Below the pieces are notes generated by a model that did not search any database, was not told the DNA's origin, and worked only from the letters and a program-made list of their open reading frames with translations. The position numbers and the translations under genes were made by a program. From a virus, in IMG/VR virus record IMGVR_UViG_3300045988_122518: DNA of 46,683 nucleotides; one strand, given 5' to 3'. Position 1 is the stretch's first letter. Each line of letters starts with the position of its first letter. This document shows, in pieces, positions 311 to 44,220 of the stretch.

Positions 311-409
311 AAATCAGCAGTTTGCACAAATTTCTTGCCGAAACTTCGTCATAATGCACAATAGTCAAAATACCCGAAACTACGCCATCACATTTGTGCA
401 GAATGACTA

Positions 410-438: not shown

Positions 439-469
439 TGTATCATCAAAAAGAAAGAGGTAAATCAAA

Positions 470-832: not shown

Positions 833-862
833 GTCTCTCTCTTTCTTGCGGATCGGCGAAGA

Positions 863-880
863 TTGTTAAAAAATTAACAA
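863..880. promoter_or_regulatory. 18-bp perfect palindrome TTGTTAAAAAATTAACAA (operator-like), about 25 bp upstream of the -35 at 903
   Basis: Perfect dyad symmetry. An identical 27-nt block (cggcgNagattgttaaaaaattaacaa) recurs at 1278-1304, and a variant TTGTTAAAATTTTAACAA lies at 3941-3958. Confidence 0.55.
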
Positions 881-902
881 GCAGAGAAGAGTAAAAAAGG
901 TC

Positions 903-931
903 TTGACAAATGTGCGGTAATGTGCTACAAT
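903..931 (+). promoter_or_regulatory. Early promoter: TTGACA 903-908, 17 bp, TACAAT 926-931
   Basis: The -35 lies within ggtcTTGACAaat, identical to the promoter at 1324. Confidence 0.6.
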
Positions 932-961
932 GTAGATACAATAAGAAAGGGGAATACTCAA

Positions 962-1252
962 ATGACTAATCAGGATTTTTACAAGGCTCTCAAAGCAGAA
1001 AAGGAACGTTTAATGAACGAAAGCAAGCAGGCGTTCCGCGACTGTCAGGTTAAACGTGGTGAGATGTCGAGGGCATGGCACGAGGTAGACGCGCTCGAAG
1101 ATGCAGGTAAGTTTGGCACACAGGAACTCAACGACGCGTATGATGACTACGAGGAAGCCAGCCATGCAAGTATGTTGGCAGACAACTACCTCGATGACAT
1201 TGATGAAGCCATTGAAAAGATAAATGAATTGATAAGTCTTTACGCAGAATAA
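962..1252 (+). CDS. Small acidic ORFan protein (96 aa)
   Basis: The ATG at 962 is preceded by aagaaaggggaa. The six-frame ORF starting at 920 begins inside the promoter, so the start was moved to 962. Terminator gggagca..tgctccc lies at 1253-1280. Confidence 0.55.
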   Translation: MTNQDFYKALKAEKERLMNESKQAFRDCQVKRGEMSRAWHEVDALEDAGKFGTQELNDAYDDYEEASHASMLADNYLDDIDEAIEKINELISLYAE

Positions 1253-1286
1253 GGGAGCAGTAATGCTCCCTTTCCAACGGCGTAGA

Positions 1287-1304
1287 TTGTTAAAAAATTA
1301 ACAA
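1287..1304. promoter_or_regulatory. Second copy of the TTGTTAAAAAATTAACAA palindrome upstream of the promoter at 1324
   Basis: Exact repeat of 863-880, including 9 nt of flank. Confidence 0.55.
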
Positions 1305-1381
1305 AGATTTTCTCGAAAAGGTCTTGACAAATCAGTTAGAATGTGGTATTCTATAATCACAAAAGGAAAGGGGAATGAAAA

Positions 1382-1591
1382 ATGATTTACGGCATTGTTT
1401 ATTACACTAAGGGCGGTCAGGGCTATCTCTTCCAGCAGGCGTTCGAGGAACAGCGCGCTATGGAGATTGCAGGTAAGATGAATGACTTACTCGCAACAGG
1501 TGCTACAATGTATAATGACAAGTCCTATGGCAAGCTCGACTTGCGGAATGTCGAGTATTTCACAGTTGAACCCAGTAGCGAAATGTATTAA
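1382..1591 (+). CDS. Small ORFan protein (69 aa)
   Basis: RBS aaaggaaaggggaa. Terminator at 1593-1625. Confidence 0.55.
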   Translation: MIYGIVYYTKGGQGYLFQQAFEEQRAMEIAGKMNDLLATGATMYNDKSYGKLDLRNVEYFTVEPSSEMY

Positions 1592-1774
1592 GGGCGGGAG
1601 CGGGCTTCCCGCTCTTTCTCTTGCGCCGTAGTGCGCGTGCAGGGCGTCCCAGCCCGGACTTTACCACGGTAAAGCGTTAAAGCAAAATTTTTTCCATTTT
1701 TTGCCAAAAACCACTTGACATTCCTATCCCGAAATGCTATAATAGTATCATCAAAGGAAAGGGGAATACAACAA

Positions 1775-1993
1775 ATGACTATCGAACAGATTATGGAGAC
1801 TTACAGCAAGGGCTATGACGTGATGATTGATGATGGATTCAACACTTGGACTCCCAGCGGGAACGATGAATGGGACGCATTAGATGAGTTTGGGTGGACT
1901 TGCACGAACAAGGAAGTCAATGAAGCGGGCATTAAGGGCATCGAAGTCTTACCGGAGAAAATCGTATTTGTCAAAGTTGGAAAAGAACTGTAA
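1775..1993 (+). CDS. Small acidic ORFan protein (72 aa)
   Basis: Promoter acTTGACAttcctatcccgaaatgcTATAAT at about 1716-1745. RBS aaaggaaaggggaa. True start ATG 1775 rather than the track start at 1715. Confidence 0.55.
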   Translation: MTIEQIMETYSKGYDVMIDDGFNTWTPSGNDEWDALDEFGWTCTNKEVNEAGIKGIEVLPEKIVFVKVGKEL

Positions 1994-2073
1994 AAAAAAT
2001 AAAAAAGGGACTTGACAAAAGCCCCTTTGTTTGGTATAATGAATACATCAAAAGAAAGAAAGAGGTAAATCAA

Positions 2074-2196
2074 ATGTCTACTCATGATGGTCTTGTTCTT
2101 CTCGCTATCTATGTTGGTGTTATCGGCGCGGGTGCGCTCATCGAATACGTGGAGCACCGCGTAAAGAGAGCGATTCGCCATAGAAAGAGAAGTTGA
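2074..2196 (+). CDS. 40-aa membrane mini-protein
   Basis: Promoter gggacTTGACAaaagcccctttgtttggTATAAT. RBS agaaagaggtaaa. The hydrophobic stretch is LVLLAIYVGVIGAGALI. A terminator overlaps the stop (gagaagttgaaaaacttctc + T9). Confidence 0.35.
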   Translation: MSTHDGLVLLAIYVGVIGAGALIEYVEHRVKRAIRHRKRS

Positions 2197-2304
2197 AAAA
2201 CTTCTCTTTTTTTTTGAAAAAAACACTTGACATTCTTTGCGGTCTGTGGTATTATAATATCAGAAAGGGAAAGGAAAATCCCAAACACCAGAAAGGTTAA
2301 TTCA

Positions 2305-2466
2305 ATGATTACTATCAAGACTCTTCTCGACGGCGTTCTTCCTGTCAAGCCCCTGGCCTATGTCCTCGGCGATGACTGGACGTATCTTTACTCCGACACC
2401 TATAAGGGTGTGGAGTTCGATGTCCACGCCTGCATGAATGGCGAGGTCGTCGCGGTGTTAAATTAA
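2305..2466 (+). CDS. Small ORFan protein (53 aa)
   Basis: Promoter acTTGACAttctttgcggtctgtggTATTATAAT. The ATG at 2305 follows a purine-rich leader. Terminator ttaagggctgaaaagcccttaa + T8 lies at 2460-2490. Confidence 0.5.
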   Translation: MITIKTLLDGVLPVKPLAYVLGDDWTYLYSDTYKGVEFDVHACMNGEVVAVLN

Positions 2467-2564
2467 GGGCTGAAAAGCCCTTAATTTTTTTTCCAAAAAG
2501 CCCTTGACAAATCCAGAAGCAGATGCTATAATAAAAGCACAATAAAGGAAAGGGAAATGCTAAC

Positions 2565-2927
2565 ATGATGAACTTTGAAGTTTATAGTCTTTTGAGAAAA
2601 TGCCTTGATGATGGCACTTTCACCGGAATGGACGTGTTTCAGGCGGAACGGGCTTGCCAGAAATTCGAGGAAGCCCAGGAAGCGCGGAAACTGAAACAGG
2701 AAATCCGCAACACCATGATGAAAAACATGATGCTCGATGTTCTCTCAAAGGCGGAAAAGCCCCTGTGCCCTACGGAAATCCAGTTTATTCTTTACCGTGA
2801 GACAGGCAAAGAATATCCTTGCGCCACCGTTGCATGGTATTGCGGTCATCTTTGTTGGATTGACAAAAAGTTGACCTACACCAAAAAGGGAAGCCGAACC
2901 TACTATTCCATTAGAAAAGAAAATTGA
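2565..2927 (+). CDS. ORFan protein (120 aa)
   Basis: Promoter ccTTGACAaatccagaagcagatgcTATAAT. RBS aaaggaaaggg. Confidence 0.55.
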   Translation: MMNFEVYSLLRKCLDDGTFTGMDVFQAERACQKFEEAQEARKLKQEIRNTMMKNMMLDVLSKAEKPLCPTEIQFILYRETGKEYPCATVAWYCGHLCWIDKKLTYTKKGSRTYYSIRKEN

Positions 2928-2937
2928 AAAAAATAAG

Positions 2938-2968
2938 AAAAAGGGCTTGACAAAAAGCCCTTTTTCTA
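2938..2968 (+). terminator. Terminator hairpin aaagggcTTGACAaaaagcccttttt whose loop carries the -35 of the next promoter
   Basis: Stem aagggc/gccctt with loop ttgacaaaa, followed by a T-run. TACTATACT -10 lies 17 bp downstream. Confidence 0.55.
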
Positions 2969-3007
2969 CTATACTTAATGTATCAAAGGAAAAGGGAATA
3001 AAAAAAA

Positions 3008-3124
3008 ATGAAATTTACTGAGGAACAAATTAAAGCTATTTTAGAATGTATCGGCAATACGAACATTGAATTATTCAGAAGCGAATGGGAAGAAATTGAA
3101 GAGAGTTTGAGAAAGGGGAATTAA
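3008..3124 (+). CDS. 38-aa mini-protein
   Basis: RBS aaggaaaagggaa. Below the ORF-track length threshold. Confidence 0.35.
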   Translation: MKFTEEQIKAILECIGNTNIELFRSEWEEIEESLRKGN

Positions 3125-3125
3125 A

Positions 3126-3197
3126 ATGAAATGTCCTTATTGCGATGGAAAGTGCGGAACGCACGCTCAATGCATTAAATGTAAAAAGGGGAAATAA
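3126..3197 (+). CDS. 23-aa CxxC zinc-ribbon-like peptide (MKCPYCDGKCGTHAQCIKCKKGK)
   Basis: RBS agaaaggggaa. Starts immediately after the stop of the upstream mini-ORF. Confidence 0.25.
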   Translation: MKCPYCDGKCGTHAQCIKCKKGK

Positions 3198-3199
3198 AA

Positions 3200-3556
3200 A
3201 TGGGAATGGAATTTTTAATCGTTGGCGGAATTTTTAGCGCAGTCCTTGCGCTGTTTGTTTGCCTTGTCTGTTGGTGCAACATGGACAAGTCTCACCCAAT
3301 AGTCAGACTGTTGGTTGGTCTTCTCATTTCGTGCGCTCTTGGCTACGGTATGACGGGCGCAGTAGTCGCTGACCACAATGCCGACAAAAAAGCATGGAAT
3401 GACGGCTATTGCTCCATCTGTGGAAATGAAATGAAATTTGTAAATGCTTCTCATGGCCGGTATGGAACAGTTTATTACTATTGGTATTGCGATGAGTGCG
3501 GACATACGTTAGAGCTAACCTCTAACTTTGCAAAGGGGGAAACAAATAATGAATGA
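3200..3556 (+). CDS. Membrane protein (two TM helices) with a C-terminal CxxC..CxxC zinc ribbon (118 aa)
   Basis: RBS aaaaaggggaaataaaaATG. Hydrophobic N-terminus. Motifs CSICGN and CDECGH. Confidence 0.55.
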   Translation: MGMEFLIVGGIFSAVLALFVCLVCWCNMDKSHPIVRLLVGLLISCALGYGMTGAVVADHNADKKAWNDGYCSICGNEMKFVNASHGRYGTVYYYWYCDECGHTLELTSNFAKGETNNE

Positions 3557-3755
3557 AAAACCTATCCCGCAGGCTTTGAGAGAACAGGCAGACGCCCTTG
3601 AAAAATTGGCTCAAAGAATTGCAAAAGAAAGTCAGAAATTTTCAGACGCGGAAGACTACAAAGACGGCGGAGAACTTGCGAACGCCTTGTTTGCGATTCA
3701 GTCCAAACTCCGCTATGAATACTTCTGGATTGCGGAAGCCATGTGGGACGTATAA
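3549..3755 (+). CDS. Small helical ORFan protein (68 aa)
   Basis: RBS aaagggggaaacaaataATG. Overlaps the upstream stop. Terminator at 3757-3798. Confidence 0.5.
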   Translation: MNEKPIPQALREQADALEKLAQRIAKESQKFSDAEDYKDGGELANALFAIQSKLRYEYFWIAEAMWDV

Positions 3756-3799
3756 TTTTCAGGCGAGATTTAATTATCTCGCCTGAAAATTTTTTTCAA

Positions 3800-4158
3800 A
3801 AAACTATTGACAAACTCGCCCCGTTGTGGTATTATAATCATGTCAAGAGGAAATGGTAAGCCTCTTGAAGTAGTAAACAAATTTTTCATACTATGGTTTG
3901 CGCGGTAGCCGATAATTACCGCGCCCTTTCTATTTCATTTTTGTTAAAATTTTAACAATGGTTGTTCGGCCGGGCGCGCACGGCCCACGCGCCCGGAATT
4001 TCCATTATATCACGGGGCCAGCAATTTGTCAAGCAAAAAGTTGCGAAAATTTGCACAAATTATTTTTCCCAATTTTGTGCGATCCGTCAATAGACAAATC
4101 TCTAAGGGTGTGTTATATTATAATTGTTCCAAGGGAACAGAAAGATGAGGTAAATAAA
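3800..4158. repeat. Intergenic module copy A: P1, palindrome, GC hairpin 3968-3998, minus-strand promoter, TTTGCGAAAA box, P2
   Basis: Shares the GC hairpin, aatttccattatatcac, caatttgtcaag and aatagacaa blocks with copies at 5908, 7948, 10368, 12913 and 15004. Confidence 0.7.
4004..4032 (-). promoter_or_regulatory. Minus-strand promoter inside module A (TTGACA = rc of 4027-4032; TATAAT = rc of 4004-4009; 17-bp spacer)
   Basis: Perfect consensus hexamers on the minus strand. Transcription would run leftward through the GC hairpin. Confidence 0.5.
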
Positions 4159-4365
4159 ATGACTAACTACAACATTCACTCTTTTATCAAGACCCAGCTT
4201 CTCTATGCCGAGCAGATGCCCTCTGACGCCGAACTTTTCAAGCATAACGCTTATGGCGCAGTTCAGTGGGAGTTATATCGCACGAATGACTCGACTCTTG
4301 AAACACAGTGGGAAATCATATATGCTCCCAAGTTCGACGCCATCATCAGAAATTATCATTTCTGA
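4159..4365 (+). CDS. Small ORFan protein (68 aa)
   Basis: RBS agatgaggtaaataaaATG. The six-frame ORF starting at 3958 runs through the non-coding module, so the start was placed at 4159. Confidence 0.5.
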   Translation: MTNYNIHSFIKTQLLYAEQMPSDAELFKHNAYGAVQWELYRTNDSTLETQWEIIYAPKFDAIIRNYHF

Positions 4366-4433
4366 TAAAAAGGGCTTGACAAAAGCCCTTCCGCATGGTA
4401 TAATACATATACAATCAAGAAAGAGGTAAGTAA

Positions 4434-4584
4434 AATGGATATGGTTCGAGTTTACAACAGACACACTAACGAAGTCCTTGAAAAGGTCTTTGCAGACCCC
4501 GCAGACGCAGACGACTTTGAAACTATTCTCGACTTCCTTGAAGCGGAATATGAGCGCTACCACGATGGGGAACAATTATATTAA
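4434..4584 (+). pseudogene. Small acidic protein gene interrupted by a +1 frameshift at the C4G2 run near 4497-4501
   Basis: Perfect promoter (aagggcTTGACAaaagccc..tggTATAAT) and RBS. The start frame ends at TGA 4518 after 28 codons. The +1 frame then continues as ADADDFETILDFLEAEYERYHDGEQLY to TAA 4582. Confidence 0.35.
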
Positions 4585-4656
4585 AGGGGCTTGACAAGTC
4601 CCTCCCCATATGGTATAATACAATCAATCCAAGAGGAAAAGAAAGAGGTAAAACAA

Positions 4657-4995
4657 ATGCTTATCAAAATGTCAAAACACGCTACGCAAGACCGCATTGA
4701 CCGCCTGCTCTTCATCTACGATAATGTAGGAATCGGCGAACCGTATATCGACAGCATTGAGGACGATGTTCTCTACACTATCACTACAACCGGTATTCTT
4801 CTTATTCGTAGCGCTAAGGACGGCACACTCATTACCGCCTATATCGCGGATATTGATAAAATCACCGCGATTTGGAGAAACAAGCACGGCGAGCGCCCCA
4901 TGCCTGACAACCTTTACAAGCGTGTCCTCGCAAATGCGTTCTTCGATAGAATGTGGAATAAACAGGAAAAGGAGAAAAAGAAAAATGTTCGGTAA
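4657..4995 (+). CDS. ORFan protein (112 aa)
   Basis: Promoter gggcTTGACAagtccctccccatatggTATAAT. RBS agaaagaggtaaaacaaATG. Confidence 0.55.
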   Translation: MLIKMSKHATQDRIDRLLFIYDNVGIGEPYIDSIEDDVLYTITTTGILLIRSAKDGTLITAYIADIDKITAIWRNKHGERPMPDNLYKRVLANAFFDRMWNKQEKEKKKNVR

Positions 4996-5341
4996 GAAAA
5001 AAGAAAAGAAATTCAATCCCTATGAGAATCACACAGACGAAATGCTTTATAAGGTTTGGGAAGAGCGCGACCGCCTTTATGAAAAGACAAGGCAAGCCAT
5101 TACGCGCGTAGGAGTGATTAACCTTTATCCTGACTGCCCTGACCGCAAGAAAGCAGTCTCCGACGCCGAAGAAGCGAAACACGCTTTAATTGTGGCTATT
5201 GGAGCATACGACACCGCGCGCATGGAGTATAATAACTACATCAAAAAGTATGCGGAAAAGTTCAATAGTCCCAAAGAGGAATGGACTACCACAAGCCATG
5301 AAATCATTGAATGGGCTTACAAATACTATTATAAAGGGTGA
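4985..5341 (+). CDS. Basic/helical ORFan protein (118 aa)
   Basis: RBS aaaaggagaaaaag. Overlaps the upstream gene by 11 nt. Confidence 0.5.
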   Translation: MFGKKKEKKFNPYENHTDEMLYKVWEERDRLYEKTRQAITRVGVINLYPDCPDRKKAVSDAEEAKHALIVAIGAYDTARMEYNNYIKKYAEKFNSPKEEWTTTSHEIIEWAYKYYYKG

Positions 5342-5346
5342 ACGAA

Positions 5347-5586
5347 ATGAAAATTACTGTTAAGCATAGCAACAAAATGGTTGCATTTGAAGACCTCCCC
5401 GAGGGTATGATTTTTCAAGACCCTGCTTCTGGAAACGTCTATTACATCAAAATCGCGACTGTGGTTGATGAAGATACCGGTGCAGAAGAATGGAACGCTC
5501 TCAATTTAGACACTTACAATCTCGACTGCTTTGGCGCGCCCTGCATGGTTCGGCCTGTCTATGACGCGGAACTGATTATCCCTTGA
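5347..5586 (+). CDS. Small ORFan protein (79 aa)
   Basis: RBS aaagggtgaacgaaATG. Translationally coupled to the upstream gene. Confidence 0.5.
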   Translation: MKITVKHSNKMVAFEDLPEGMIFQDPASGNVYYIKIATVVDEDTGAEEWNALNLDTYNLDCFGAPCMVRPVYDAELIIP

Positions 5587-5697
5587 CAAAACCGAACTTT
5601 TGTTCGTGTTTTTCTCCCCCTTTCCTATGGCTTTGGCGGTTGTGCCTGAAACAACCGCCACCCTTTCCAAAAAATAAATTGAATGGAGATAAGAAAA

Positions 5698-5874
5698 ATG
5701 AAGAATGAGAAACTGAGCGAGGTTGTTGAAACGGTGTGCAGAATGGCTCGATACGGCATTCAGAAGAGATACCCGTCGGGCGGAACAGCAGCAAATGAAA
5801 TGATTGAGCGTGTCGCGCTTCTTGAAGACAAGCTCGTTCCCATTCTCGTCGACCTCGAAGCCGTAGAAAACTAA
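5698..5874 (+). CDS. Small ORFan protein (58 aa)
   Basis: RBS ggagataagaaaaATG. A 9-bp GC hairpin lies upstream at 5636-5660. Terminator at 5880-5908. Confidence 0.45.
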   Translation: MKNEKLSEVVETVCRMARYGIQKRYPSGGTAANEMIERVALLEDKLVPILVDLEAVEN

Positions 5875-5907
5875 ATGAAAAATCACCCAAATTGGGTGAT
5901 TTTTTTT

Positions 5908-6100
5908 GTTTACTTTCACTATTGACAAAGTTCCTTGAATGTGATAAAATCGTCGGCGCGCGGACGATTGTGGCGCGCCGAGTTTTTTGTCAAGAGGTAA
6001 GTTCAACAAATTTTCGCACGAATTTTTGTGTAAAATGCCAATAGACAAAAATCCTATAATGTAGTAAGATGTATACAACAAATAAAGGGGGAATAAAATA
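5908..6100. repeat. Intergenic module copy B (P1 TTGACA 5922-5927 / TAAAAT 5945-5950; GC hairpin 5953-5980; TTTCGCACGAA box; P2)
   Basis: Same architecture as the other copies but lacks the minus-strand -10 element. Confidence 0.65.
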
Positions 6101-6445
6101 ATGGTGGCATGGTATTGGTTGATTCTCGCGTTTTGTGTGGGTATTGCATTCGCTACAATCACCGACGAATGGTGCGAATGGGAAAACACCTTGACTGATG
6201 TTCTCGCATGGATTGCTCTGATTATCGGCTTTGTTCCTTTGTCTTTCTATTGCATATTTCTCAAACTGACAGTTTTCCACCCCACTACGCAAGAGAAGTT
6301 TGAGGAAGTCAAAAAGGTTAGCGAAGAAACTTGTAAAATCTATCGAGTATGCGGAAACGTGTATTTCTGGATTGACCCCAAAGCAACAAAAATCTATAAC
6401 AAGGTCTTTTTTGTCCGAGTAAAGGAGGCTGAAAACAATGGGTGA
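6101..6445 (+). CDS. Membrane protein (114 aa, 2-3 TM helices)
   Basis: RBS aaagggggaataaaataATG. Hydrophobic N-terminal half. Confidence 0.55.
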   Translation: MVAWYWLILAFCVGIAFATITDEWCEWENTLTDVLAWIALIIGFVPLSFYCIFLKLTVFHPTTQEKFEEVKKVSEETCKIYRVCGNVYFWIDPKATKIYNKVFFVRVKEAENNG

Positions 6446-6596
6446 AAGATTTAATGTTTTATGTTTAATTGAGTGGTTGCGTGCTTGGGTAGAGACCTTT
6501 AACGACTGCGCGTGTTGTCCTTTGTCCAACGAGTGCGACCGCAGAAGCATCAGCTATGAATGTGCTGATGACCTATTAGAAAAATTAAAAGAGTAA
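6438..6596 (+). CDS. Cys-rich mini-protein (52 aa)
   Basis: RBS aaaggaggctgaaaacaATG. Its start overlaps the upstream stop by 8 nt. Confidence 0.4.
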   Translation: MGERFNVLCLIEWLRAWVETFNDCACCPLSNECDRRSISYECADDLLEKLKE

Positions 6597-6669
6597 ATTA
6601 AAAACTCTCTATTGACATTTCTATTATAATATGATATTATTATAATAGAAAAAGGAAAGGGTGATAATA

Positions 6670-7143
6670 ATGAATACAATTCTTCTGTTCGCGCTTTGCA
6701 CGGCGGTGAATGTGATTCTGTCAACTATCAAAAGCATTTTGACTGTCAACGGCGGGAAGTTTAGTGCTTCTCTTATCAATGCCATCACATATGGATTTTA
6801 TTCCTATGTGATTGTGCTGACTTCCGCGGACGGTATGCCTATCTGGTTGAAAATGGCTATTACTGCTGTTTGTAATTTCGTGGGCGTCTACTTTGTTAAG
6901 TGGATTGAAGAGAAAGCCCGCAAAGACCGATTATGGAAAGTCGAACTGACTGTCCCGACAAAATACACTAACACCATTGATTTTGATTTGCATGACGTTC
7001 CGCACTCTTACATTGAATTGAGCGATAAACATACGCTTTTCAATTTTTATTGTGCGACCCAAAAGGAAAGCGCAAAAGTCAAGGCTATTGCCAATCAATA
7101 CGAAGCAAAATATTTTGTCGCGGAAAGCAAAAATCTTGAATAA
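6670..7143 (+). CDS. Membrane-anchored ORFan protein (157 aa)
   Basis: Promoter ctaTTGACAtttctattataatatgaTATTAT. RBS aaaggaaagggtgataataATG. Confidence 0.55.
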   Translation: MNTILLFALCTAVNVILSTIKSILTVNGGKFSASLINAITYGFYSYVIVLTSADGMPIWLKMAITAVCNFVGVYFVKWIEEKARKDRLWKVELTVPTKYTNTIDFDLHDVPHSYIELSDKHTLFNFYCATQKESAKVKAIANQYEAKYFVAESKNLE

Positions 7144-7207
7144 AGGGCTTGACAAAAGCCTTTTGTTCTGCTATACTTAACGTATCAAGTGAAAGGGGAA
7201 AATTAAA

Positions 7208-7660
7208 ATGAAAGCTACTGGTATTGTTCGCAGAATTGATGACCTTGGACGTGTGGTTATCCCGAAAGAGATTCGCCGGACTTTGAAGATTCGAGAGGGC
7301 GACCCGCTTGAAATCTTCATTGAAGACAACGACTGCGTTTGCTTCAAGAGATATTCAGTGCTTGGCTCTTTGACCGAAGAAGCTCTGCGAGTTGCTATCA
7401 CAATGGCGTCAAATTCCGGCCTGCGTCCCATCGCAATCTATGACACTACCGTGAAACTGCGGGGCATGGAAAACTTTCCGCCTTATGTTTCGACCCAGTG
7501 GGATTTTAAAAGAAAGCCGTTTGTTTTCAATAACACTTATGGCGTTTACCCGATTTGTGCGGACGGCGACCTTGTGGGTTATGCGGTTTGCGACCAGCAG
7601 GACATGGGTTGCGAAATGGACATGATTGTCCGCTACCTCAGCATTGTGTCTGAACGCTAA
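7208..7660 (+). CDS. AbrB/SpoVT-family swapped-hairpin DNA-binding regulator (150 aa)
   Basis: N-terminus MKATGIVRRIDDLGRVVIPKEIRRTLKIREGDPLEIF matches the AbrB/MazE/SpoVT N-domain signature (..GIVRKVDELGRVVIP.E.RR.L.I...D.LEI). This comparison is from memory, not a database search. Confidence 0.6.
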   Translation: MKATGIVRRIDDLGRVVIPKEIRRTLKIREGDPLEIFIEDNDCVCFKRYSVLGSLTEEALRVAITMASNSGLRPIAIYDTTVKLRGMENFPPYVSTQWDFKRKPFVFNNTYGVYPICADGDLVGYAVCDQQDMGCEMDMIVRYLSIVSER

Positions 7661-7736
7661 AAAAATAGCATAAGGGACTTGACAAAACAAGTCCCTTATG
7701 CTACAATAAAAGCATCAAAGGAAAGAGGTAAATAAA

Positions 7737-7916
7737 ATGGAAATTGAAAAGACATTCTGGGTTGATTACAGCGGTAAAAATCCTTGGGACCAGTATTATG
7801 ATAATCGGGTTCGTTTTTACTCCGAAGAAGAAGCTGATGCTTTTATCCAAAAGTTGATGGAAGATGAAAATATCTATCAGATTTTCAAAACCATTACTAC
7901 CAGCTATCACAGATAA
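7737..7916 (+). CDS. Small ORFan protein (59 aa)
   Basis: Promoter gggacTTGACAaaacaagtcccttatgcTACAAT, with the -35 in a hairpin loop. RBS aaaggaaagaggtaaataaaATG. Terminator at 7917-7948. Confidence 0.5.
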   Translation: MEIEKTFWVDYSGKNPWDQYYDNRVRFYSEEEADAFIQKLMEDENIYQIFKTITTSYHR

Positions 7917-7947
7917 AATTTGAGGTGAAAATTCACCTCATTTTTTT

Positions 7948-8170
7948 AGTTATTTTGCCTATTGACAAAAATCCAATAGTGTGATAAAATGACCGGCCGT
8001 TCGCGCCTGCCACGGCCGGAAATTCCATTATACCACCATCTCAGCAATTTGTCAATAGGAAATTTAGCCAAAAGTCCAACTAATTATTTTCCTGAATTTG
8101 GGTATTTTACCAATAGACAAGAATGTAATAATCTGCTATACTATGGATACAGTAAAGAAAGGGGATACAA
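7948..8170. repeat. Intergenic module copy C (P1 7962-7990; GC hairpin 7993-8019; minus promoter 8027-8055; P2 8114-8142)
   Basis: All three promoters have consensus hexamers with exact 17-bp spacers. Confidence 0.7.
8027..8055 (-). promoter_or_regulatory. Minus-strand promoter in module C (TTGACA = rc 8050-8055; TATAAT = rc 8027-8032)
   Basis: Reverse complement reads cctatTGACAaattgctgagatggtggTATAATgg. Confidence 0.5.
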
Positions 8171-8173
8171 ACA

Positions 8174-8437
8174 ATGTATTACACTCACGATTTTTCTACT
8201 GAAAAGTTCTCCACTCGCGAAGAATGTGCGGAAGAGCTTCTTTCTTCTATGGATTCTCTTGATATTTCAGAATTCCTTGCTCAGCGCGTTAGTCTCAGCG
8301 ACATTATTGATGAACGCGCGACCCGCGACCCCGAGGATTTTTATGACTGGTTGGATAGGGAAATTGAGATTGCAACTAATGCTTATCTCAACTATCATAT
8401 CAACGAATACGCGGGCCACTTGGAGGATTTAGAATGA
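8174..8437 (+). CDS. Acidic ORFan protein (87 aa)
   Basis: RBS aaagaaaggggatacaaacaATG. Confidence 0.55.
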   Translation: MYYTHDFSTEKFSTREECAEELLSSMDSLDISEFLAQRVSLSDIIDERATRDPEDFYDWLDREIEIATNAYLNYHINEYAGHLEDLE

Positions 8438-8556
8438 TTATTTTAATCGGCATTTTCGGCCTCGTTTTTGGCTTTATTTTTGCCTATTCCTGTGAAAAGT
8501 CTCGGGTGGGACTCTTTCAATATCGTCTACGCTATTCCTGTGCTGATTTTGCTTAA
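8434..8556 (+). CDS. 40-aa membrane mini-protein
   Basis: ATGA start/stop overlap with the upstream gene. Hydrophobic IILIGIFGLVFGFIFA. Confidence 0.35.
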   Translation: MIILIGIFGLVFGFIFAYSCEKSRVGLFQYRLRYSCADFA

Positions 8557-8584
8557 TTTCTTATCTTTTAAGGGGTAAAATAGT

Positions 8585-8716
8585 ATGTCATTTTGTGAAA
8601 GTTTTAATTGTGGCTATTACTATAAAGGTGAAAATGATGAATTCGCCTGTTGCCACTGTGAAAGCCCCATCGCGCCTTGTGAAGAAGAAGACGAAAATTA
8701 TGAAGAAGAAAATTGA
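8585..8716 (+). CDS. 43-aa Cys-rich acidic mini-protein
   Basis: RBS aaggggtaaaatagtATG. CxxC motifs. Confidence 0.3.
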   Translation: MSFCESFNCGYYYKGENDEFACCHCESPIAPCEEEDENYEEEN

Positions 8717-8786
8717 AAAAAACTCTTGACAAATCCAAAAGTATCTGATATACTATGGGTATAGTAAAGGAAAGGGGTAAACACCT

Positions 8787-9080
8787 ATGAGTAAACCGAA
8801 AACTTATGAGTATGAGGGAAGAACCTTTGAGGTCAAGGCATACAGCGGAGATGAGTATGGGGCTTTCTTATTCATCTATGTTTATGAAGTTATCCACCCT
8901 AACCGCAAATTCTTTGGTCGAACTCGGCTCTTTTGCGAAGATTTTATTCTTCTCGACCAATATCTTTCTATTGATGACGCGGTAAAAGATGTCATCGCAC
9001 GGGGTCTTTGGCAGGAAGAATATAAAAAGTTTGCCAAAGATAAATGGAAAGAATGGATAAATAAAGCGGGAAATTGCTAA
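8787..9080 (+). CDS. ORFan protein (97 aa)
   Basis: Promoter ctcTTGACAaatccaaaagtatctgaTATACT. RBS aaaggaaaggggtaaacacctATG. Confidence 0.55.
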   Translation: MSKPKTYEYEGRTFEVKAYSGDEYGAFLFIYVYEVIHPNRKFFGRTRLFCEDFILLDQYLSIDDAVKDVIARGLWQEEYKKFAKDKWKEWINKAGNC

Positions 9081-9148
9081 AATTTTTCTTGACAACCGCG
9101 CAGATGTATGGTATAATACAAATACAGTAAAGGAAAGGGGTAATACCT

Positions 9149-9649
9149 ATGAAAATCACTTACATCAAGTCCCACGTTGTGGCCACTCGACGTTCCATCA
9201 ACTTTGACATGGACGGCACTATCGCTGACCTCTACGGCGTCAAGGATTGGCTCGCGCTTCTCCGTTCGGAAAATCCTAAGCCCTATCGAACTGCCGTTCC
9301 CATGTGCGACATGGCTGAATTGAATGAGGTTTGCGAACTTCTCCGCGCCGAGGGCTGGGAAATCAATATCATCACTTGGCTCTCTAAGGATTCGAGCGAG
9401 GAATATAAAAACCTCGTGCGTGAAGCAAAGCGCGCTTGGCTTGAAGAGCAGGGCTTCCACTATGACCACTTCCACGGCGTCCAGTATGGCGCGACTAAGG
9501 CCGACAGCGTGCGCGACCGCTATGACGTGTCCATCTTGGTTGACGATAATGAAAAGGTTCGGAATGGTTGGCATTTGGGTGAAACTATTGACCCGACCGC
9601 AGTAAACATTATCGAAAAACTTTCGGAACTTTTGGAGAAAAGGGCTTGA
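9149..9649 (+). CDS. HAD-superfamily phosphatase, likely a 5'(3')-deoxyribonucleotidase (NT5C-like) (166 aa)
   Basis: Motif I FDMDGTIAD (DxDGT) sits near the N-terminus, the usual position in NT5C-type phage nucleotidases. Promoter tcTTGACAaccgcgcagatgtatggTATAAT. Confidence 0.5.
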   Translation: MKITYIKSHVVATRRSINFDMDGTIADLYGVKDWLALLRSENPKPYRTAVPMCDMAELNEVCELLRAEGWEINIITWLSKDSSEEYKNLVREAKRAWLEEQGFHYDHFHGVQYGATKADSVRDRYDVSILVDDNEKVRNGWHLGETIDPTAVNIIEKLSELLEKRA

Positions 9650-9703
9650 CAAAGCCCTACTCCAATGGTATAATAAATGTATCAAATGAAAGGGGAAAAT
9701 AAA

Positions 9704-9910
9704 ATGTTTGTTCTTTTGATTCTGCTGTCTCTCGCAATTTCGTTCCTGCTTACCTCTGGTCTGGTTTGGCTTCTCTGTTGGCTTCTTCCCGCCCTCGGTA
9801 TTACCGCAATCGGCACTTTCGTCATCGTGTTCTCGTGGAAGCTGGCACTCGCAATTTGGATTATTCTCGTGCTTTTGCAGTCCATCTTCTCGGTCGGTTC
9901 AAAGGGGTGA
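9704..9910 (+). CDS. Small integral membrane protein (68 aa)
   Basis: Promoter gggcTTGACAaagccctactccaatggTATAAT, a terminator/promoter hairpin. Two TM helices. Confidence 0.5.
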   Translation: MFVLLILLSLAISFLLTSGLVWLLCWLLPALGITAIGTFVIVFSWKLALAIWIILVLLQSIFSVGSKG

Positions 9911-9915
9911 TAAAA

Positions 9916-10059
9916 ATGATGCCTTATTTTTGGGTTGATGTTGGAATCATCGGAAAAGTAGTTGAAAAGATTGATGACGACCTTTTCATCTATGAAACTG
10001 TTATCACCAAAGAACGCGCGACCGTGACCGCAAAATGGGTCAAGGAACATCTGCTTTAA
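9916..10059 (+). CDS. 47-aa mini-protein
   Basis: RBS aaaggggtgataaaaATG. Confidence 0.35.
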   Translation: MMPYFWVDVGIIGKVVEKIDDDLFIYETVITKERATVTAKWVKEHLL

Positions 10060-10075
10060 GAGAGGAGAAATAAAA

Positions 10076-10333
10076 ATGAAAGTAAATTTTGGCACTAAGG
10101 GTCAGCTCCAAATTATCAACATTCTCAGCGGTGGCACGTTCACCACTCTGCGCTCTAACGGTAGCGGTATGGGAATGTATCTCAAAATTGACAGCAACAA
10201 CAACACGCCGTTTGTCCGGTCGAGAGGTTCGCAGTATTGCTACGCGGTGAATCTTGAAACGGGTCAGGTTCGCGAATTCTCGCGCGACAAGATGGTAACG
10301 CCTGTCAGAACCGAAGTCAGTGTGATTGGCTAA
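10076..10333 (+). CDS. ORFan protein (85 aa)
   Basis: RBS agaggagaaataaaaATG. A bidirectional terminator follows at 10338-10368. Confidence 0.55.
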   Translation: MKVNFGTKGQLQIINILSGGTFTTLRSNGSGMGMYLKIDSNNNTPFVRSRGSQYCYAVNLETGQVREFSRDKMVTPVRTEVSVIG

Positions 10334-10367
10334 AAGAAAATCTCCCCAAAAATGGGGAGATTTTTTT

Positions 10368-10570
10368 GTTTACTTTGACTATTGACAAAATCATTTGAAT
10401 GTGATATAATGGGCCGGCCGTTTCCGCGCGCTACGGCCGGAATTTACCATTATACACCCTGCCAGCATTTTTGTCAAGAGAAATTTCGCACAAATTTCAA
10501 TTTTATTTTTTCCCGTTATTTAGCTATTTTACTAATAGACAAATCAGTATCAATCTGCTATACTACATAA
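10368..10570. repeat. Intergenic module copy D (P1 10382-10410; GC hairpin 10412-10440; minus promoter 10449-10477; TTTCGCACAAA box 10484-10494; P2 10536-10564)
   Basis: Best-preserved copy. All spacers are exactly 17 bp. Confidence 0.75.
10449..10477 (-). promoter_or_regulatory. Minus-strand promoter in module D (TTGACA = rc 10472-10477; TGTATAAT = rc 10449-10456)
   Basis: Face-to-face with P1 (-10 at 10405-10410), about 40 bp away with the GC hairpin between. The predicted leftward transcript of roughly 110 nt would end at the bidirectional terminator 10338-10368. Confidence 0.5.
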
Positions 10571-10756
10571 TGTCAGGAGGAAAGAGTAAGACCTGCGGAA
10601 AGGCAGTTCCCTTGACCATCATACCAGAAGCCGACACAAGGAATGTTCCAAGCGTGGCGTGCCGAACAAACTTTCAAAAAAAGTTTGAAAAACCCCTTGA
10701 CAAACCGCTCGACCTATGGTATAATGAATACATCAAATATGAGAGGTAAAAACAAA

Positions 10757-10796
10757 ATGATTTCTGATGCTCGCCCACCGCCTTAAAAACTAATGG
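10757..10796 (+). CDS. Possible 12-aa leader peptide MISDARPPP* (polyproline then stop)
   Basis: Canonical early promoter (ccccTTGACAaaccgctcgacctatggTATAAT) and RBS gagaggtaaaaacaaaATG. Followed by a second mini-ORF MYSNKPRDRP* at 10849-10881. Confidence 0.2.
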
Positions 10797-10979
10797 CTTA
10801 TTGAATTGGATTGGTTTATGAGTATAGATAAAGGTAGGTATAAACAAGATGTATAGTAATAAACCTCGCGACCGCCCCTAAAAAAATTTGCAAAAACTAT
10901 TGACAACCTGCTTCGCCTATGATATAATAACTACATCAAAGACAAGGACAGTCTTAAAAACCAGAAAGGAATTGATACT

Positions 10980-11360
10980 ATGGCTACTTCTACTTCTACC
11001 ACTAAGAAGCTCACCAAGCGCGACCGTTTCGAGGCTCTGCTTAAAATGAGCGAGGTTCAGGCAAATCCTGACATGGTGGCGTTCATTGAGCATGAGATTG
11101 AACTGCTCGCCAAGAAGAACGCGGGCGACAAGAAGCCCACGGCCAAGCAGATGGAGAATGACGCCGTGAAGCAGGTCATTCTGGACGAGATGACCGCGAA
11201 TCCCGACAAGCTGTATACCGTAACCGACCTCATCAAGGGCGTTCCCGAGCTTGCGGACTACTCCAACCAGCGCGTTTCCGCTCTTCTGCGTCAGATGATT
11301 GACGCGGGTGCGGTTGTCAAGACGGTTGACAAGCGCAAGTCCTACTTCTCCCTCGCGTAA
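10980..11360 (+). CDS. Paralog A of a three-member family, possibly a winged-helix DNA-binding protein (126 aa)
   Basis: Promoter ctaTTGACAacctgcttcgcctatgaTATAAT. Shares TKKLTKRDRFEALLK..EHEIELL..KKNAGDKKPTA..QRVSALLRQMI..KRKSYF with 13540-13917, and the core FxEHEIELLxKK with 34343-34759. Confidence 0.55.
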   Translation: MATSTSTTKKLTKRDRFEALLKMSEVQANPDMVAFIEHEIELLAKKNAGDKKPTAKQMENDAVKQVILDEMTANPDKLYTVTDLIKGVPELADYSNQRVSALLRQMIDAGAVVKTVDKRKSYFSLA

Positions 11361-11449
11361 AGGGAAAAGGGCAGGGGATAAAAAAAATCCCCTGCCCTAC
11401 AAAAAAAACTGTTGACAAACCAATAGCAAGGTGCTATACTATTATTAGA

Positions 11450-11478
11450 GGTTGAGAGAACGATGGTAAACCTCAATC
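11450..11478 (+). ncRNA. Conserved 5'-UTR hairpin element ggttgagagaacgatggtaaacctcaatc (copy 1)
   Basis: Identical 29-mer at 14499-14527. Stem gaggtt/aacctc with a 16-nt loop, sitting between a promoter and the start codon. Confidence 0.4.
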
Positions 11479-11503
11479 TACTTTTCCAATAGGAGACGAT
11501 AAG

Positions 11504-12280
11504 ATGGGTATTGATAAGCGCAAAAACTACGGCATTATGCTGGACACGGAAACCGCAAACACCATTCAGGACGGCGATAAGCTGGATATGTCAAATGTGC
11601 TTCCCTATGACTTCGGCTGGGCGGTCATTGATTCCAAGGGAAATGTTTATGAAACTCATTCCTTTGTGAATCGCGACATTTTCTGCTACGAGCGTGACCT
11701 CATGCAGTCCGCATACTATGCCGATAAGATTCCCCGCTACATTGAGGACATTCAAAACGGCACTCGCATTATGGCTGACCTTTACGAAATTCGTCTTGCG
11801 TTCTGCGAATGTGTCGAGCGCTACAACTGCTCTTTTGTCTGTGCTCATAATATGCGGTTCGACCTTAACGCCTGCAACAACGCGCAAAGATGGGACACGA
11901 AAAGCAAGTATCGCTATTTCTTCCCCTACGACCTTGAAATTTGGGACACGTTGAAAATGGCGCGTCAGGTTATCGGCAAGATGCCTACTTACCGCGACTA
12001 TTGCGAAAAGAACGGCTATAAAACCAAGAACGGACAGCTCCGTTTCACCGCAGAAATTCTCTATCGCTTTATCAGCGGTGAGGACAGCTTTGATGAATCC
12101 CACACGGGACTTGAAGATGTTCTCATTGAAGTTGAGATTCTGCGCTATTGCGTCCGACAGCACAAGGAAATGGACAAGTCCCTTTTCAAAACTCCCACGG
12201 TGAAGCGCCCCAAGCCTACCGAGTTTCAGCGCGCGCTCATGCGAAACATTAAGGAAAATCCCGTTGTAAACATGAGCTAA
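11504..12280 (+). CDS. DEDDh-family 3'-5' exonuclease (DnaQ/RNase T-like) (258 aa)
   Basis: Exo I motif IMLDTETAN (D-x-E). Exo III-like motif ESHTGLEDVLIE (H-x4-D). Promoter ctgTTGACAaaccaatagcaaggtgcTATACT. Confidence 0.5.
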   Translation: MGIDKRKNYGIMLDTETANTIQDGDKLDMSNVLPYDFGWAVIDSKGNVYETHSFVNRDIFCYERDLMQSAYYADKIPRYIEDIQNGTRIMADLYEIRLAFCECVERYNCSFVCAHNMRFDLNACNNAQRWDTKSKYRYFFPYDLEIWDTLKMARQVIGKMPTYRDYCEKNGYKTKNGQLRFTAEILYRFISGEDSFDESHTGLEDVLIEVEILRYCVRQHKEMDKSLFKTPTVKRPKPTEFQRALMRNIKENPVVNMS

Positions 12281-12357
12281 AAAAAATAGGGAATAGGGCT
12301 TGACAAGTCCTATTCCCTATGGTATAATCAATATATCAAATGAAAGAGGTGTTTCAC

Positions 12358-12636
12358 ATGAACGCTAAACAAGTCCTTTTTGTAGTCCCTGATGACAATG
12401 ACCCTCACATGGGCATTTTAATCGACCATGACTATATTATCTGCGCCGAGTGCGGTGGCGTCTTTGAAGCCGATGAAGTTTTCATTATTCAGACCTACGA
12501 CTCTTGGGTAAACTTTGAAGCCGAGATTGCGGACGAGCTTGACCTACTGACCGCAAAAGACATTGGCAAGAAGTTAGACCGCGAGGAAAAATTCGGCTGG
12601 GACGCATGGAAAGAAGCAATTAAAGGGGAGTTTTGA
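12358..12636 (+). CDS. ORFan protein with a CxxC motif (92 aa)
   Basis: Promoter gggcTTGACAagtcctattccctatggTATAAT. RBS gaaagagg. Start at 12358 rather than the track start at 12340. Confidence 0.5.
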   Translation: MNAKQVLFVVPDDNDPHMGILIDHDYIICAECGGVFEADEVFIIQTYDSWVNFEAEIADELDLLTAKDIGKKLDREEKFGWDAWKEAIKGEF

Positions 12637-12638
12637 AA

Positions 12639-12878
12639 ATGGATTTAGATTTGAATTACATGACCGACGAGGAACTGGACGAACTCATTATCCAGATACA
12701 GGAAGCCAGAAAAGCCCGCGAAGAAAGCCGAAAGACTGACCTTTGGAGAAGTGTTCAGCGGGCGGTGCAGACTTACGTCATGGAATGTGGAATGATTGAA
12801 CTCTTTACCGAGGATTACAATTCCACGCTGGATGCTGATTCTTTCAGAATTCCCGGCGAGATTAACCTGCTGGACTAA
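12639..12878 (+). CDS. Acidic ORFan protein (79 aa)
   Basis: RBS aaaggggag 8 nt upstream. Terminator at 12885-12912. Confidence 0.5.
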   Translation: MDLDLNYMTDEELDELIIQIQEARKAREESRKTDLWRSVQRAVQTYVMECGMIELFTEDYNSTLDADSFRIPGEINLLD

Positions 12879-12912
12879 ATAAAAAACTGCCCAAAAATGG
12901 GCAGTTTTTTTT

Positions 12913-13110
12913 GTCTATTTTGCCTATTGACAAACGCGGATTTTTGTGATAAAATGGCCGGCCCGCCAACGCCCAAAGCGGGCCGAATTCACCATTATAC
13001 CACGCCCCGCCAATTTTGTCAAGAGAAAAGTTGCACAAAAGTGAAGAAAATTTTTTCCCGTAATTTGGTTATTTTGTCAATTGCAATCTGTGGGCAATCT
13101 GCTATAATAG
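12913..13110. repeat. Intergenic module copy E (P1 12927-12955; GC hairpin 12959-12985; minus promoter 12994-13022; box aaagttgcacaaaa; P2 -10 13103-13108)
   Basis: Same ordered blocks as copy D. Confidence 0.7.
12994..13022 (-). promoter_or_regulatory. Minus-strand promoter in module E (TTGACA = rc 13017-13022; TATAAT = rc 12994-12999)
   Basis: Reverse complement reads ctcTTGACAaaattggcggggcgtggTATAATgg. Confidence 0.5.
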
Positions 13111-13440
13111 ATAATGTCAAGAGGGAAACGGCTCAATGAGGGTCGCTCCCATCAGGATTAAGCCGAAAAAATTTCAAAGAAATTTGAAATTCCCTCTTGA
13201 CAAATCCCAGCGAGTGTGCTACAATAGAAAATGTCAAGAGGGAGTAGCCCAAGAAATCCGAGGGCGCGCGACCTTGAGAAAGTATAGGAAGTAAACATAA
13301 TACACCACGTTGTAAAGCCAAACGTTGAACGTGAAAGTGAGTTTGATTGAACCAACTATCCTTGACGCGGTTTTCCGCTGACAAATAGATTGAATCAACA
13401 AACAATAAATTATCCGTCAGGTCGGGGTAGTAATTCGTGT
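13110..13440 (+). ncRNA. Promoter-driven stretch of about 330 nt with no convincing ORF; candidate non-coding RNA or leader
   Basis: Three tandem sigma70-like promoters at about 13081-13108, 13199-13228 and 13450-13478. Each is followed by the leader aatgtcaagaggga. The only ORFs here run through promoters or lie antisense. Confidence 0.25.
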
Positions 13441-13539
13441 GAAAAGTTTGCGAAACCTCTTGACAAGTACTCTAAAGTGTGGTATACTCAATAATATCAA
13501 AAGGGTAGCGACCTACCGCCAAAGAAAGGAATTGATACC

Positions 13540-14959: not shown

Positions 14960-15003
14960 ATATTCAATCAGCAGGTTGACTAAAACCTGCTGATTTTTTT
15001 TTG

Positions 15004-15100
15004 TGCATTTTGCCTATTGACACCGATCGGAAAATGTGGTATAATGGACCGCCCGATCACTGACGCTCCGGGCGGAATTTCGGAATAATTATAGGTTTAG
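15004..15100. repeat. Intergenic module copy F (P1 TTGACA 15017-15022 / TGgTATAAT 15037-15045; GC hairpin 15049-15075; degenerate downstream blocks)
   Basis: Retains aatttcggaataattatagg and tttgtgcgaaaa, but the minus-strand -35 is degenerate. Confidence 0.55.
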
Positions 15101-44216: not shown

Positions 44217-44220
44217 TTAT

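Follow-up and report, generated by a model that had tools for sequence, protein, structure and literature searches.

The window analysed here is the whole 46,683-nucleotide DNA stretch of IMG/VR virus record IMGVR_UViG_3300045988_122518, and the subject is a set of eight hairpins at gene junctions in its left part, each of which encloses the -35 box of the promoter for the next gene. This part of the window, from ~400 to ~15,450, is occupied by an array of ~38 small genes on one strand, 23 to 258 codons in length, and is thus longer and more varied than the original prediction had it (1990-12330, with open reading frames (ORFs) of 40-130 codons). Some 34 near-perfect sigma-70/sigma-A promoters (TTGACA-N17-TGnTATAAT) serve the array; a consensus scan yielded 105 promoter-like sites, where shuffles gave 45.9 +/- 6.8, and 19 of the sites match perfectly at 12/12. 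The GC content of the array is ~42-47% and drops sharply to ~33-38% at ~16 kb. A uniform layout of single-gene cassettes proved to be an overstatement, as the transcription units comprise 1 to 5 ORFs each, several of them being operons, and hairpin and promoter are fused at 8 of 24 gene-to-promoter junctions. The leader ATCAAAGGAAAGGGG, which had been assigned to every cassette, is a real motif, with 10 occurrences on the array's + strand at up to 3 mismatches, against ~2 that chance would place in the entire window, but it accompanies only ~10 promoters, about a third of those in the array.

A megablast search with positions 1-16000 against 50,697 phage records returned no nucleotide-level relative. 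At the protein level the best matches come from ~140-kb Enterococcus phages and from phage contigs of human faeces, with 26-39% identity, and 22 related loci were found in IMG/VR, where their contigs reach 197 kb; the source is a large uncultivated phage, probably with a gut Bacillota host. Among the array ORFs compared with Pfam (5 submitted) and PHROGs (3 submitted), a match with a named function was absent for most, and the AbrB/MazE-like gene at 7208-7660 matched the Pfam family MazE_antitoxin. At the Rfam gathering threshold the early region contains no family, the only match being a tRNA array at 42-46 kb.

All eight hairpin-promoters lie where they had been predicted, and they are named here by the first position of the -35. 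An inverted repeat surrounds the -35 hexamer in each of them, typically as AAAGGGC-TTGACAA-AAGCCCTTT. The promoters match the consensus at 11-12 of 12 positions and have a spacer of 17 bp throughout; the TG of the extended -10 is present in seven of the eight, and TATACT and TACAAT occur as variants of the predicted TATAAT. The hairpin does enclose the -35, but the hexamer is not simply its loop: TT or TTG is paired within the stem (TT/AA or TTG/CAA) and the loop consists of GAC(A)(A) alone, such that TTGACAA supplies the loop together with the two or three innermost pairs. The G-rich arm lies upstream and the C-rich arm opens the spacer, the arms having the form GGG(C/A)...(G)CCC and the loops measuring 3-6 nt. 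Four elements (2947, 4376, 7149, 9646) have the core AAGGGCTTGACAAAAGCCC in common, and in three (7679, 9646, 12300) the stem is long, at 13-16 pairs, and runs as far as the extended -10. Runs of A3-A8 precede all eight, and a Shine-Dalgarno sequence with its ATG follows ~45-60 nt past the -35. The elements are listed below with RNA folding free energy (dG, in kcal/mol) and its z value.

Element 1 (2012), 2004..2040, + strand: hairpin 2004-2028, AAAGGGACTT-gacaa-AAGCCCCTTT; -35 at 2012-2017, -10 TATAAT at 2035-2040; dG -9.4, z -1.7, + tail score 4.54; upstream gene 1775-1993, with its stop 18 nt ahead of the -35.
Element 2 (2947), 2936..2975, + strand: hairpin 2936-2967, AGAAAAAGGGCTT-gacaaa-AAGCCCTTTTTCT; -35 at 2947-2952, -10 TATACT at 2970-2975; dG -19.8, z -6.5, 0/200 shuffles; A-run/T-run shape as in a bidirectional terminator; upstream gene ends at 2927.
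Element 3 (4376), 4370..4404, + strand: hairpin 4370-4390, AAGGGCTT-gacaa-AAGCCCTT; -35 at 4376-4381, -10 TATAAT at 4399-4404; dG -13.9, z -2.5; followed by TTCCGCATGG, without a T-run; upstream gene ends at 4365.
Element 4 (4591), 4585..4619, + strand: hairpin 4585-4603, AGGGGCTT-gac-AAGTCCCT, with one G.U pair; -35 at 4591-4596, -10 TATAAT at 4614-4619; dG -12.6, z -1.1; followed by CCCCATATGG, without a T-run; upstream gene ends at 4584.
Element 5 (7149), 7138..7177, + strand: hairpin 7138-7168, GAATAAAGGGCTT-gacaa-AAGCCTTTTGTTC; -35 at 7149-7154, -10 TATACT at 7172-7177; dG -17.2, z -5.3, 0/200 shuffles; upstream gene ends at 7143, so that its stop codon lies within the 5' arm.
Element 6 (7679), long class, 7666..7707, + strand: perfect 16-bp hairpin 7666-7703, TAGCATAAGGGACTTG-acaaaa-CAAGTCCCTTATGCTA, from ~-49 into the -10 hexamer; -35 at 7679-7684, -10 TACAAT at 7702-7707; dG -26.4, z -10.6; A7 upstream (T7 on the - strand), no T-run on the + strand; the AbrB/MazE-like gene ends at 7660.
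Element 7 (9646), 9628..9674, + strand: inner hairpin 9641-9658, AGGGCTT-gaca-AAGCCCT, and outer stem TTGGAG/CTCCAA (9628-9669); -35 at 9646-9651, -10 TATAAT at 9669-9674; dG -22.0, z -6.0; the stop TGA (9647-9649) of the upstream gene 9149-9649 lies within the -35 hexamer.
Element 8 (12300), long class, 12286..12328, + strand: hairpin 12286-12320, ATAGGGAATAGGGCTT-gac-AAGTCCTATTCCCTAT; -35 at 12300-12305, -10 TATAAT at 12323-12328; dG -23.9, z -6.8; A8 upstream, no T-run on the + strand; an exonuclease-like upstream gene ends at 12280.

When the segment from -22 to +30 relative to the -35 was folded for each of the 34 strong + strand promoters, the eight elements gave -9.4 to -26.4 kcal/mol and the other 26 gave 0 to -10.4, among which only P410 (-10.4) folds more strongly than -9.4. 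For five of the eight, z is at or below -5.3 and none of 200 shuffles folds as well, while 4376, 2012 and 4591 are weak when taken individually (z = -2.5, -1.7 and -1.1); in six control promoters without a hairpin, z stays above -0.7.

Selection on the pairing and the junction slot

The hairpins were followed through the 22 related loci, which have 45-97% protein identity to the window and include 14 close relatives (L001-L014). Together with the window they contain 52 unique hairpins that enclose a -35, with arms as different as GGGCTT/AAGCCC, GGGGTTGA/TCAACCCC, GCGGTTG/CAACCGC and GGACTTG/CAAGTCC. In a gapless alignment (A1) of 12 long-class elements, 95.3% of the cells are paired, compared with 27-52% when the partner is slid, compensatory double changes are present in 5 of 16 pairs, and the covariation score was reached by none of 500 shuffles. 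Single orthologs illustrate the same behaviour: L002 has a G-C pair where element 4591 has its G.U, and L013 has replaced a T-A pair of element 12300 by C-G in a compensatory manner. Since they are conserved with compensatory changes, the hairpins are real and under selection.

The arrangement recurs beyond this family. The pattern GGGCTTGACA-N2-4-GCCC-N4-9-TATAAT was found in 48 stretches of viral contigs, and a non-complementary control (GCCC...GCCC) in 3; the 48 stretches represent 29 distinct sequences from many unrelated metagenomes. TTTT directly follows the 3' arm in 7 of the 29, for which chance is estimated to provide ~0.5, indicating that a real subset is built as sense-strand terminators; AAAA precedes the 5' arm in 6. 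A possible anticorrelation between A-run and T-run was also looked for in these unrelated contigs, with no effect (7 with T4, 6 with A4, 1 with both, ~1.4 expected). The cultured Enterococcus phage EF1 (L074; MF001358.1) has six such promoters around a homologous exonuclease-like gene, two of them at 7153 and 9130, and at the other four (6381, 7948, 8709 and 9484) the annotated stop of the upstream coding sequence is the TGA within TTGAC(A/T). Where the stop lies within the -35, as in these four EF1 genes and at 9646, the 5' arm and its A-run are consequently coding (...E-K-R-A-stop).

What the hairpins are for is best approached from the place that they occupy. Of the 24 gene-to-promoter junctions in the array, 8 are fused and 3 are bare, and at the other 13 a hairpin or terminator of its own stands ~15 nt ahead of the promoter with its A-tract; no hairpin is found at junctions 8716/8726 and 9080/9089. 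The fused junctions are exclusively those in which the stop codon and the -35 are at most 20 nt apart (range 0-20 nt, the stop once lying within the -35). The same slot can change its occupant between relatives: past the AbrB-like gene, L002 and L003 have a stand-alone, A/T-flanked terminator, and the window and L001 have a fused hairpin-promoter, which is part of an inserted cassette. Two stand-alone terminators in the window are close to the fused form:

2460..2495, + strand: stand-alone terminator, AAATTAAGGGC-tgaaaa-GCCCTTAATTT followed by T8; tail score 4.57.
14966..15004, + strand: stand-alone terminator, AATCAGCAGG-TTGACTAAAA-CCTGCTGATT followed by T9; tail score 5.68.

The terminator at 2460 has the GGGC/GCCC core of the fused hairpins and ends 9 nt before the A-tract and -35 (2504) of the next promoter; it is the unfused version of the fused junction type. 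The one at 14966 has a -35-like TTGACT in its loop, with no -10 at 17 bp and the real promoter following at 15017, and may be a "half" element. That the slot otherwise holds stand-alone terminators is the main argument for regarding the nested hairpin as a 3' structure of the upstream transcription unit. RNA initiated at the nested promoter excludes the hairpin, which is present only in RNA from promoters further upstream, and hairpin and next promoter have ~30 bp in common.

The eight elements are probably compact relatives in kind of the PeSLs, composite elements of a sigma-70 promoter and a stem-loop, with an AT-rich upstream part, that extend from stop codon to Shine-Dalgarno/ATG in the phages RB49 and phi1 (Arbiol et al. 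2010, PMC2839356). The terminator or attenuator hairpin of the upstream unit would here be nested around the next -35 as the product of a compressed junction. At the three elements with a T-run in the spacer (2012, 2947, 7149), the hairpin would act on the upstream RNA as a terminator or attenuator; at the five remaining elements it might be a weaker, possibly factor-assisted terminator, a protection of the 3' end, or both. Neighbouring strong promoters would thereby be partially insulated from one another.

Terminator quality and rival readings

Like intrinsic terminators, the nested hairpins have a GC-rich stem of 6-16 bp and a loop of 3-6 nt directly past a stop codon, and 2012, 2947 and 7149 have an A-run before the stem and a T-rich tract after it (TTTGTTTGG, TTTTTCT and TTTTGTTCT, respectively). 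In contrast to intrinsic terminators, the other five lack a sense-strand U-tract, the place of which is taken by the spacer and the -10. The predicted fusion of terminator and promoter thus holds for the slot, for the ~30 bp in common and for the selected hairpin, while the T-run is confined to these three of the eight elements.

Several observations weigh against sense-strand termination. The hairpins of 4376, 4591, 7679, 9646 and 12300, which lack the U-tract, continue with TTCCGCATG, TCCCCATAT, TACAATAAA, TACTCCAAT and TATGGTATA, contain 2-4 T in the 9 nt past the GC core, and have + tail scores of 1.75-2.99, near the background mean of 2.12; the eight stand-alone T-run terminators of the region score 3.05-5.74. 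A U-tract of at least ~5 U in 8 nt is found solely at 2012, 2947 and 7149, and efficient canonical termination can consequently not be assumed at the other five sites. Across the family, 7 of 50 hairpins exceed the 95th percentile of the background on the + strand, compared with 28 of 50 on the - strand. The strand on which the structure folds is likewise not singled out by mispairs when stems are defined strand-symmetrically (33 G.U against 30 A.C); in alignment A1 there are ~4 independent G.U events and at most 1 A.C event. Hairpins that end genes without a T-run are a general habit of this phage, as stand-alone hairpins at 11368-11398, 13923-13952 and 14433-14468 also follow + strand genes without a + strand T-run, those at 11368 and 14433 having a T-run on the - strand. 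A Listeria phage of the Herelleviridae has, in its early terminal-repeat region, sites of efficient termination that were likewise not recognised as canonical intrinsic terminators (PMC12282133).

The lack of U-tracts in five of the eight elements would also be expected if the hairpins served RNA processing or stability, that is, if they were formed in read-through RNA and blocked 3'-to-5' exonucleases, or were cut by RNase III, thus defining or stabilising the upstream 3' end. The long class forms perfect duplexes of 16-17 bp, beyond what termination needs, and the position is intercistronic, with read-through likely since junctions 8716/8726 and 9080/9089 have no hairpin. The early mRNAs of T7 and SP82/SPO1 contain intercistronic RNase III hairpins that define and stabilise upstream mRNA 3' ends, and these too are hairpins without a U-tract between early cistrons of a lytic phage. 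However, they are longer, interrupted duplexes located off the promoters, whereas most stems here consist of 6-8 GC-core pairs and would be poor RNase III substrates. The terminator-like placement of T-runs in three of the eight elements and in 7 of the 29 independent sequences, as well as the canonical T7-T9 terminators that hold the same slot elsewhere and in relatives, also speak against processing as the main role, and this explanation is considered unlikely.

The strand preference of the tail scores raises a different idea, namely that the hairpins are minus-strand or bidirectional insulators that stop antisense RNA from the perfect - strand promoters at 4032, 8055, 10477 and 13022, their overlap with the + strand promoters being incidental. 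The mean tail score of the family is indeed higher on the - strand (3.69 vs 2.70), which is due to the upstream A-run, a consensus scan calls - strand terminators at 2028-2004, 2967-2936, 7160-7146 and 7704-7665, and consensus - strand promoters lie to the right of several hairpins. With their upstream A-run, the hairpins resemble - strand terminators at least as much as + strand ones; of the two flanks of a bidirectional terminator, the A-run is present in all eight elements and the T-run in three. The A7-8 of the long class adjoins the edge of the stem rather than a fixed position at -45..-40. An A-run at -45..-40 is, however, equally present in hairpin-less promoters (such as AAAAAccacTTGACA and AAAAAActaTTGACA), so that it is explained as an UP-like element. 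Moreover, RNA from the promoters at 10477 and 13022 would encounter T-rich bidirectional stand-alone terminators (10367-10334 and 12910-12881) before it reached any nested hairpin, downstream T4 is as frequent as upstream A4 in the unrelated contigs (7/29 and 6/29), and the 5' arm with its A-run is coding in EF1 and at 9646. Antisense insulation is for these reasons rated quite unlikely.

It is highly improbable that the palindrome acts in DNA, as an operator bound by a dimeric protein of phage or host, or as a cruciform that masks the -35, and so shuts off some early promoters. The inverted repeat is perfect or near-perfect and falls exactly on the -35, the G-rich arm is invariably 5', and the array itself encodes a DNA-binding protein of the AbrB/MazE fold (7208-7660). 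The stems vary freely, though (GGGCTT, GGGGTTGA, GCGGTTG, GGACTTG and unrelated long arms), with pairing kept by compensation, which is the signature of a nucleic-acid structure and not of a sequence-specific protein site; the loop size (3-6 nt) and the centre of symmetry also shift, as would be incompatible with a fixed dimer site. An operator palindrome was rejected on the grounds that no half-site is conserved at a fixed spacing and that the arms vary in sequence and length, and a single-stranded promoter hairpin of the Frpo type was rejected because the -35 would here be unpaired in the loop instead of being reconstituted as a duplex. The core AAGGGCTTGACAAAAGCCC that several copies have in common and the cassette indels bordered by such blocks might suggest that the elements are functionless recombination linkers, or hitch-hiking copies of a single mobile regulatory block. 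Compensatory changes, and independent stem sequences in distant clades and unrelated contigs, show that it is the pairing itself that is selected, leaving this last explanation with next to no likelihood.

The overlap is best read as compaction rather than as a special coupling of termination and initiation. It is very unlikely that the nesting is itself functional, with ~30-40 bp serving as a two-way insulator and as a promoter that depends on upstream traffic. Were this so, an incoming polymerase that terminates or pauses in the spacer or -10 could briefly occlude the promoter or be handed over to it, or upstream transcription could drive the extrusion of a cruciform that masks the -35. Adjacent early cassettes would then fire in an ordered or mutually exclusive fashion, and the recurrence of the pattern (48 against 3) and the TGA in TTGACA would mark a general, so far unstudied regulatory module of early regions.

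Other features of the window

Past ~15.4 kb, in the part of lower GC content, there is a second class of promoters, at 15416, 30416, 41929, 43012 and 44425 on the + strand and at 16782 on the - strand, the spacer of which is conserved and made up of A and T only, TTGACATTTTTAAAAAAATAATATATAAT, with ATATATAGAAAATAAGAAAAGAGGT after it. Promoters with the AT spacer also stand among the 10-11 tRNA genes at 42000-46290 (Asn x2, Leu x2, Ala, Glu x2, Asp, Met and others). The extreme left end of the window (1-110) consists of tandem direct repeats of ~47 bp (GAAATTGAAAATTGATTTGTTGTTTTAAATCGTACTTT...), and in several related loci this array stands at a contig end; it may be a genome terminus or the boundary of a terminal repeat. 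At 17110-17350, an AT-rich non-coding stretch adjoining - strand genes contains the short palindromes GGAACTAACGGTTCC and GGAACTTTTTGTTCC, three times each, and is possibly a series of binding sites for a protein, or an origin-like region.

Within the early array, the genes at 10980-11360 and 13540-13917 are paralogs of 125-126 codons with ~75-78% DNA identity and long structured 5' leaders. The 29-nt sequence GGTTGAGAGAACGATGGTAAACCTCAATC occurs at 11445-11475 and 14500-14530, upstream of the genes at 11504 and 14543, perhaps as a leader common to both or an RNA element. A non-coding module of ~205 bp is present in six copies that are 72-77% identical (3790-4120, 5905-6100, 7940-8145, 10365-10570, 12905-13110 and 15000-15200) and has no match in Rfam. 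It consists, in this order, of a terminator, a + strand promoter (cctaTTGACA...TGaTAAAAT), a perfect - strand promoter facing it, and a TAGACA...TATACT promoter for the next gene. The -10 boxes of the facing promoters are ~36 nt apart with a GC-rich hairpin between them (e.g. CCGGCCG...CGGCCGG), and the face-to-face pair could hardly hold two polymerases simultaneously. Possibly it acts as a switch made of convergent promoters, or gives rise to a pair of short RNAs with 5' hairpins.

Known elements and a possible shuffling of early cassettes

The array as a whole appears to resemble the early region of SPO1-like phages (Herelleviridae), in which, as Stewart and co-workers reportedly described in 1998, a host-takeover module combines strong early promoters with many short genes. 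Here, too, ~15 kb at a genome end are taken up by short genes on one strand, each with a strong sigma-A consensus promoter and a strong Shine-Dalgarno sequence, although no sequence homology to SPO1 is detectable. No account of hairpins enclosing a -35 was met in a search of the SPO1 literature that left the key papers outside its range, and promoter-terminator overlap is not mentioned in a study of Pseudomonas phages by ONT-cappable-seq. Gene turnover in the Herelleviridae is high near the genome ends (PMC12282133).

The closest counterparts of the elements themselves are the PeSLs. As in these, a near-consensus TTGACA-N17-TATAAT promoter with an AT-rich upstream tract is combined with a stem-loop of G-run and C-run in a block of ~100 bp that spans the distance between the upstream stop codon and the downstream Shine-Dalgarno/ATG. 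PeSL stem-loops fall into five positional subclasses (upstream, over the -35, between the boxes, over the -10 and downstream; PMC2839356), one of which is the position over the -35 found here, and AAAGGGC...GCCCTTT corresponds to the consensus A3-4G3-loop-C3T3-4 of the PeSLs of nt-1 (PST, nt-1: Comeau et al. 2014, PMC4122927). PeSLs are concentrated in hyperplastic regions and have been implicated in indels (PMC2839356); the present elements similarly form dense arrays beside small genes with no assigned function in the genome region of greatest plasticity, and indels and replacements between close relatives are bordered by them. As far as sequence goes, all the features that define PeSLs are present.

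There are also differences. The fused form here always surrounds the -35, whereas in RB49 and phi1 the stem-loop lies most commonly between the boxes or over the -10, and the extended -10 (TGn) and an upstream stop codon that is sometimes the TGA within TTGACA are peculiar to the present elements. The phage belongs to an unrelated lineage, its nearest cultured relatives being the Enterococcus phages of ~140 kb with their 26-39% protein identity, and because both the lineage and the host group differ from those of the T4-like phages, the likeness is one of analogy and not of homology. Termination by PeSLs and the formation of mini-circles, excised by recombination between elements, have been shown experimentally, one stem-loop (in the PeSL211/210 reporter assay) terminating as well as rrnB T1 in vivo (PMC2839356), whereas the elements described here are candidates put forward from sequence.

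Comparison of the window with its 14 close relatives revealed 55 clusters of homology breakpoints, of which 39 lie outside gene interiors (34% expected, p = 2.5e-8) and 9 lie within blocks of hairpin, promoter and leader. The cassette at 7666-7944, comprising a hairpin-promoter, an ORF of 59 codons and a terminator, is absent from seven relatives, and a cassette between 4437 and 4610 is absent from L004 and L014, where a single promoter-leader aligns to both of the flanking copies; both indels are bordered by fused elements. This pattern matches what PeSL-mediated shuffling would be expected to leave behind, and the repeated blocks of promoter, hairpin and leader may be junctions at which related phages gain, lose and swap cassettes. 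Against this it must be held that purifying selection at gene borders alone would give the same clustering, so that a role for recombination at the elements is at most suggested by the breakpoints.

The layout is thus real, but it has already been described, as the PeSL cassettes of T4-like phages, and it does not reveal a new mechanism. With the compact PeSL-like reading, the PeSL idea would be extended past the T4-like phages of Gram-negative hosts, to an unrelated group of large Bacillota phages that includes cultured Enterococcus phages, and to many metagenomic phage contigs. For annotation, A(n)G3-4[C]-TTGACA-[G]C3-4T(n)-TGnTATAAT would be a signature of early-gene junctions, most of which would escape standard terminator predictors, and a stop codon is to be reckoned with inside the -35 hexamer itself. 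Such compact natural combinations of promoter and terminator may be of interest as parts for synthetic biology. In the phages themselves, the cassettes would insulate small early genes from one another and at the same time allow them to be shuffled.

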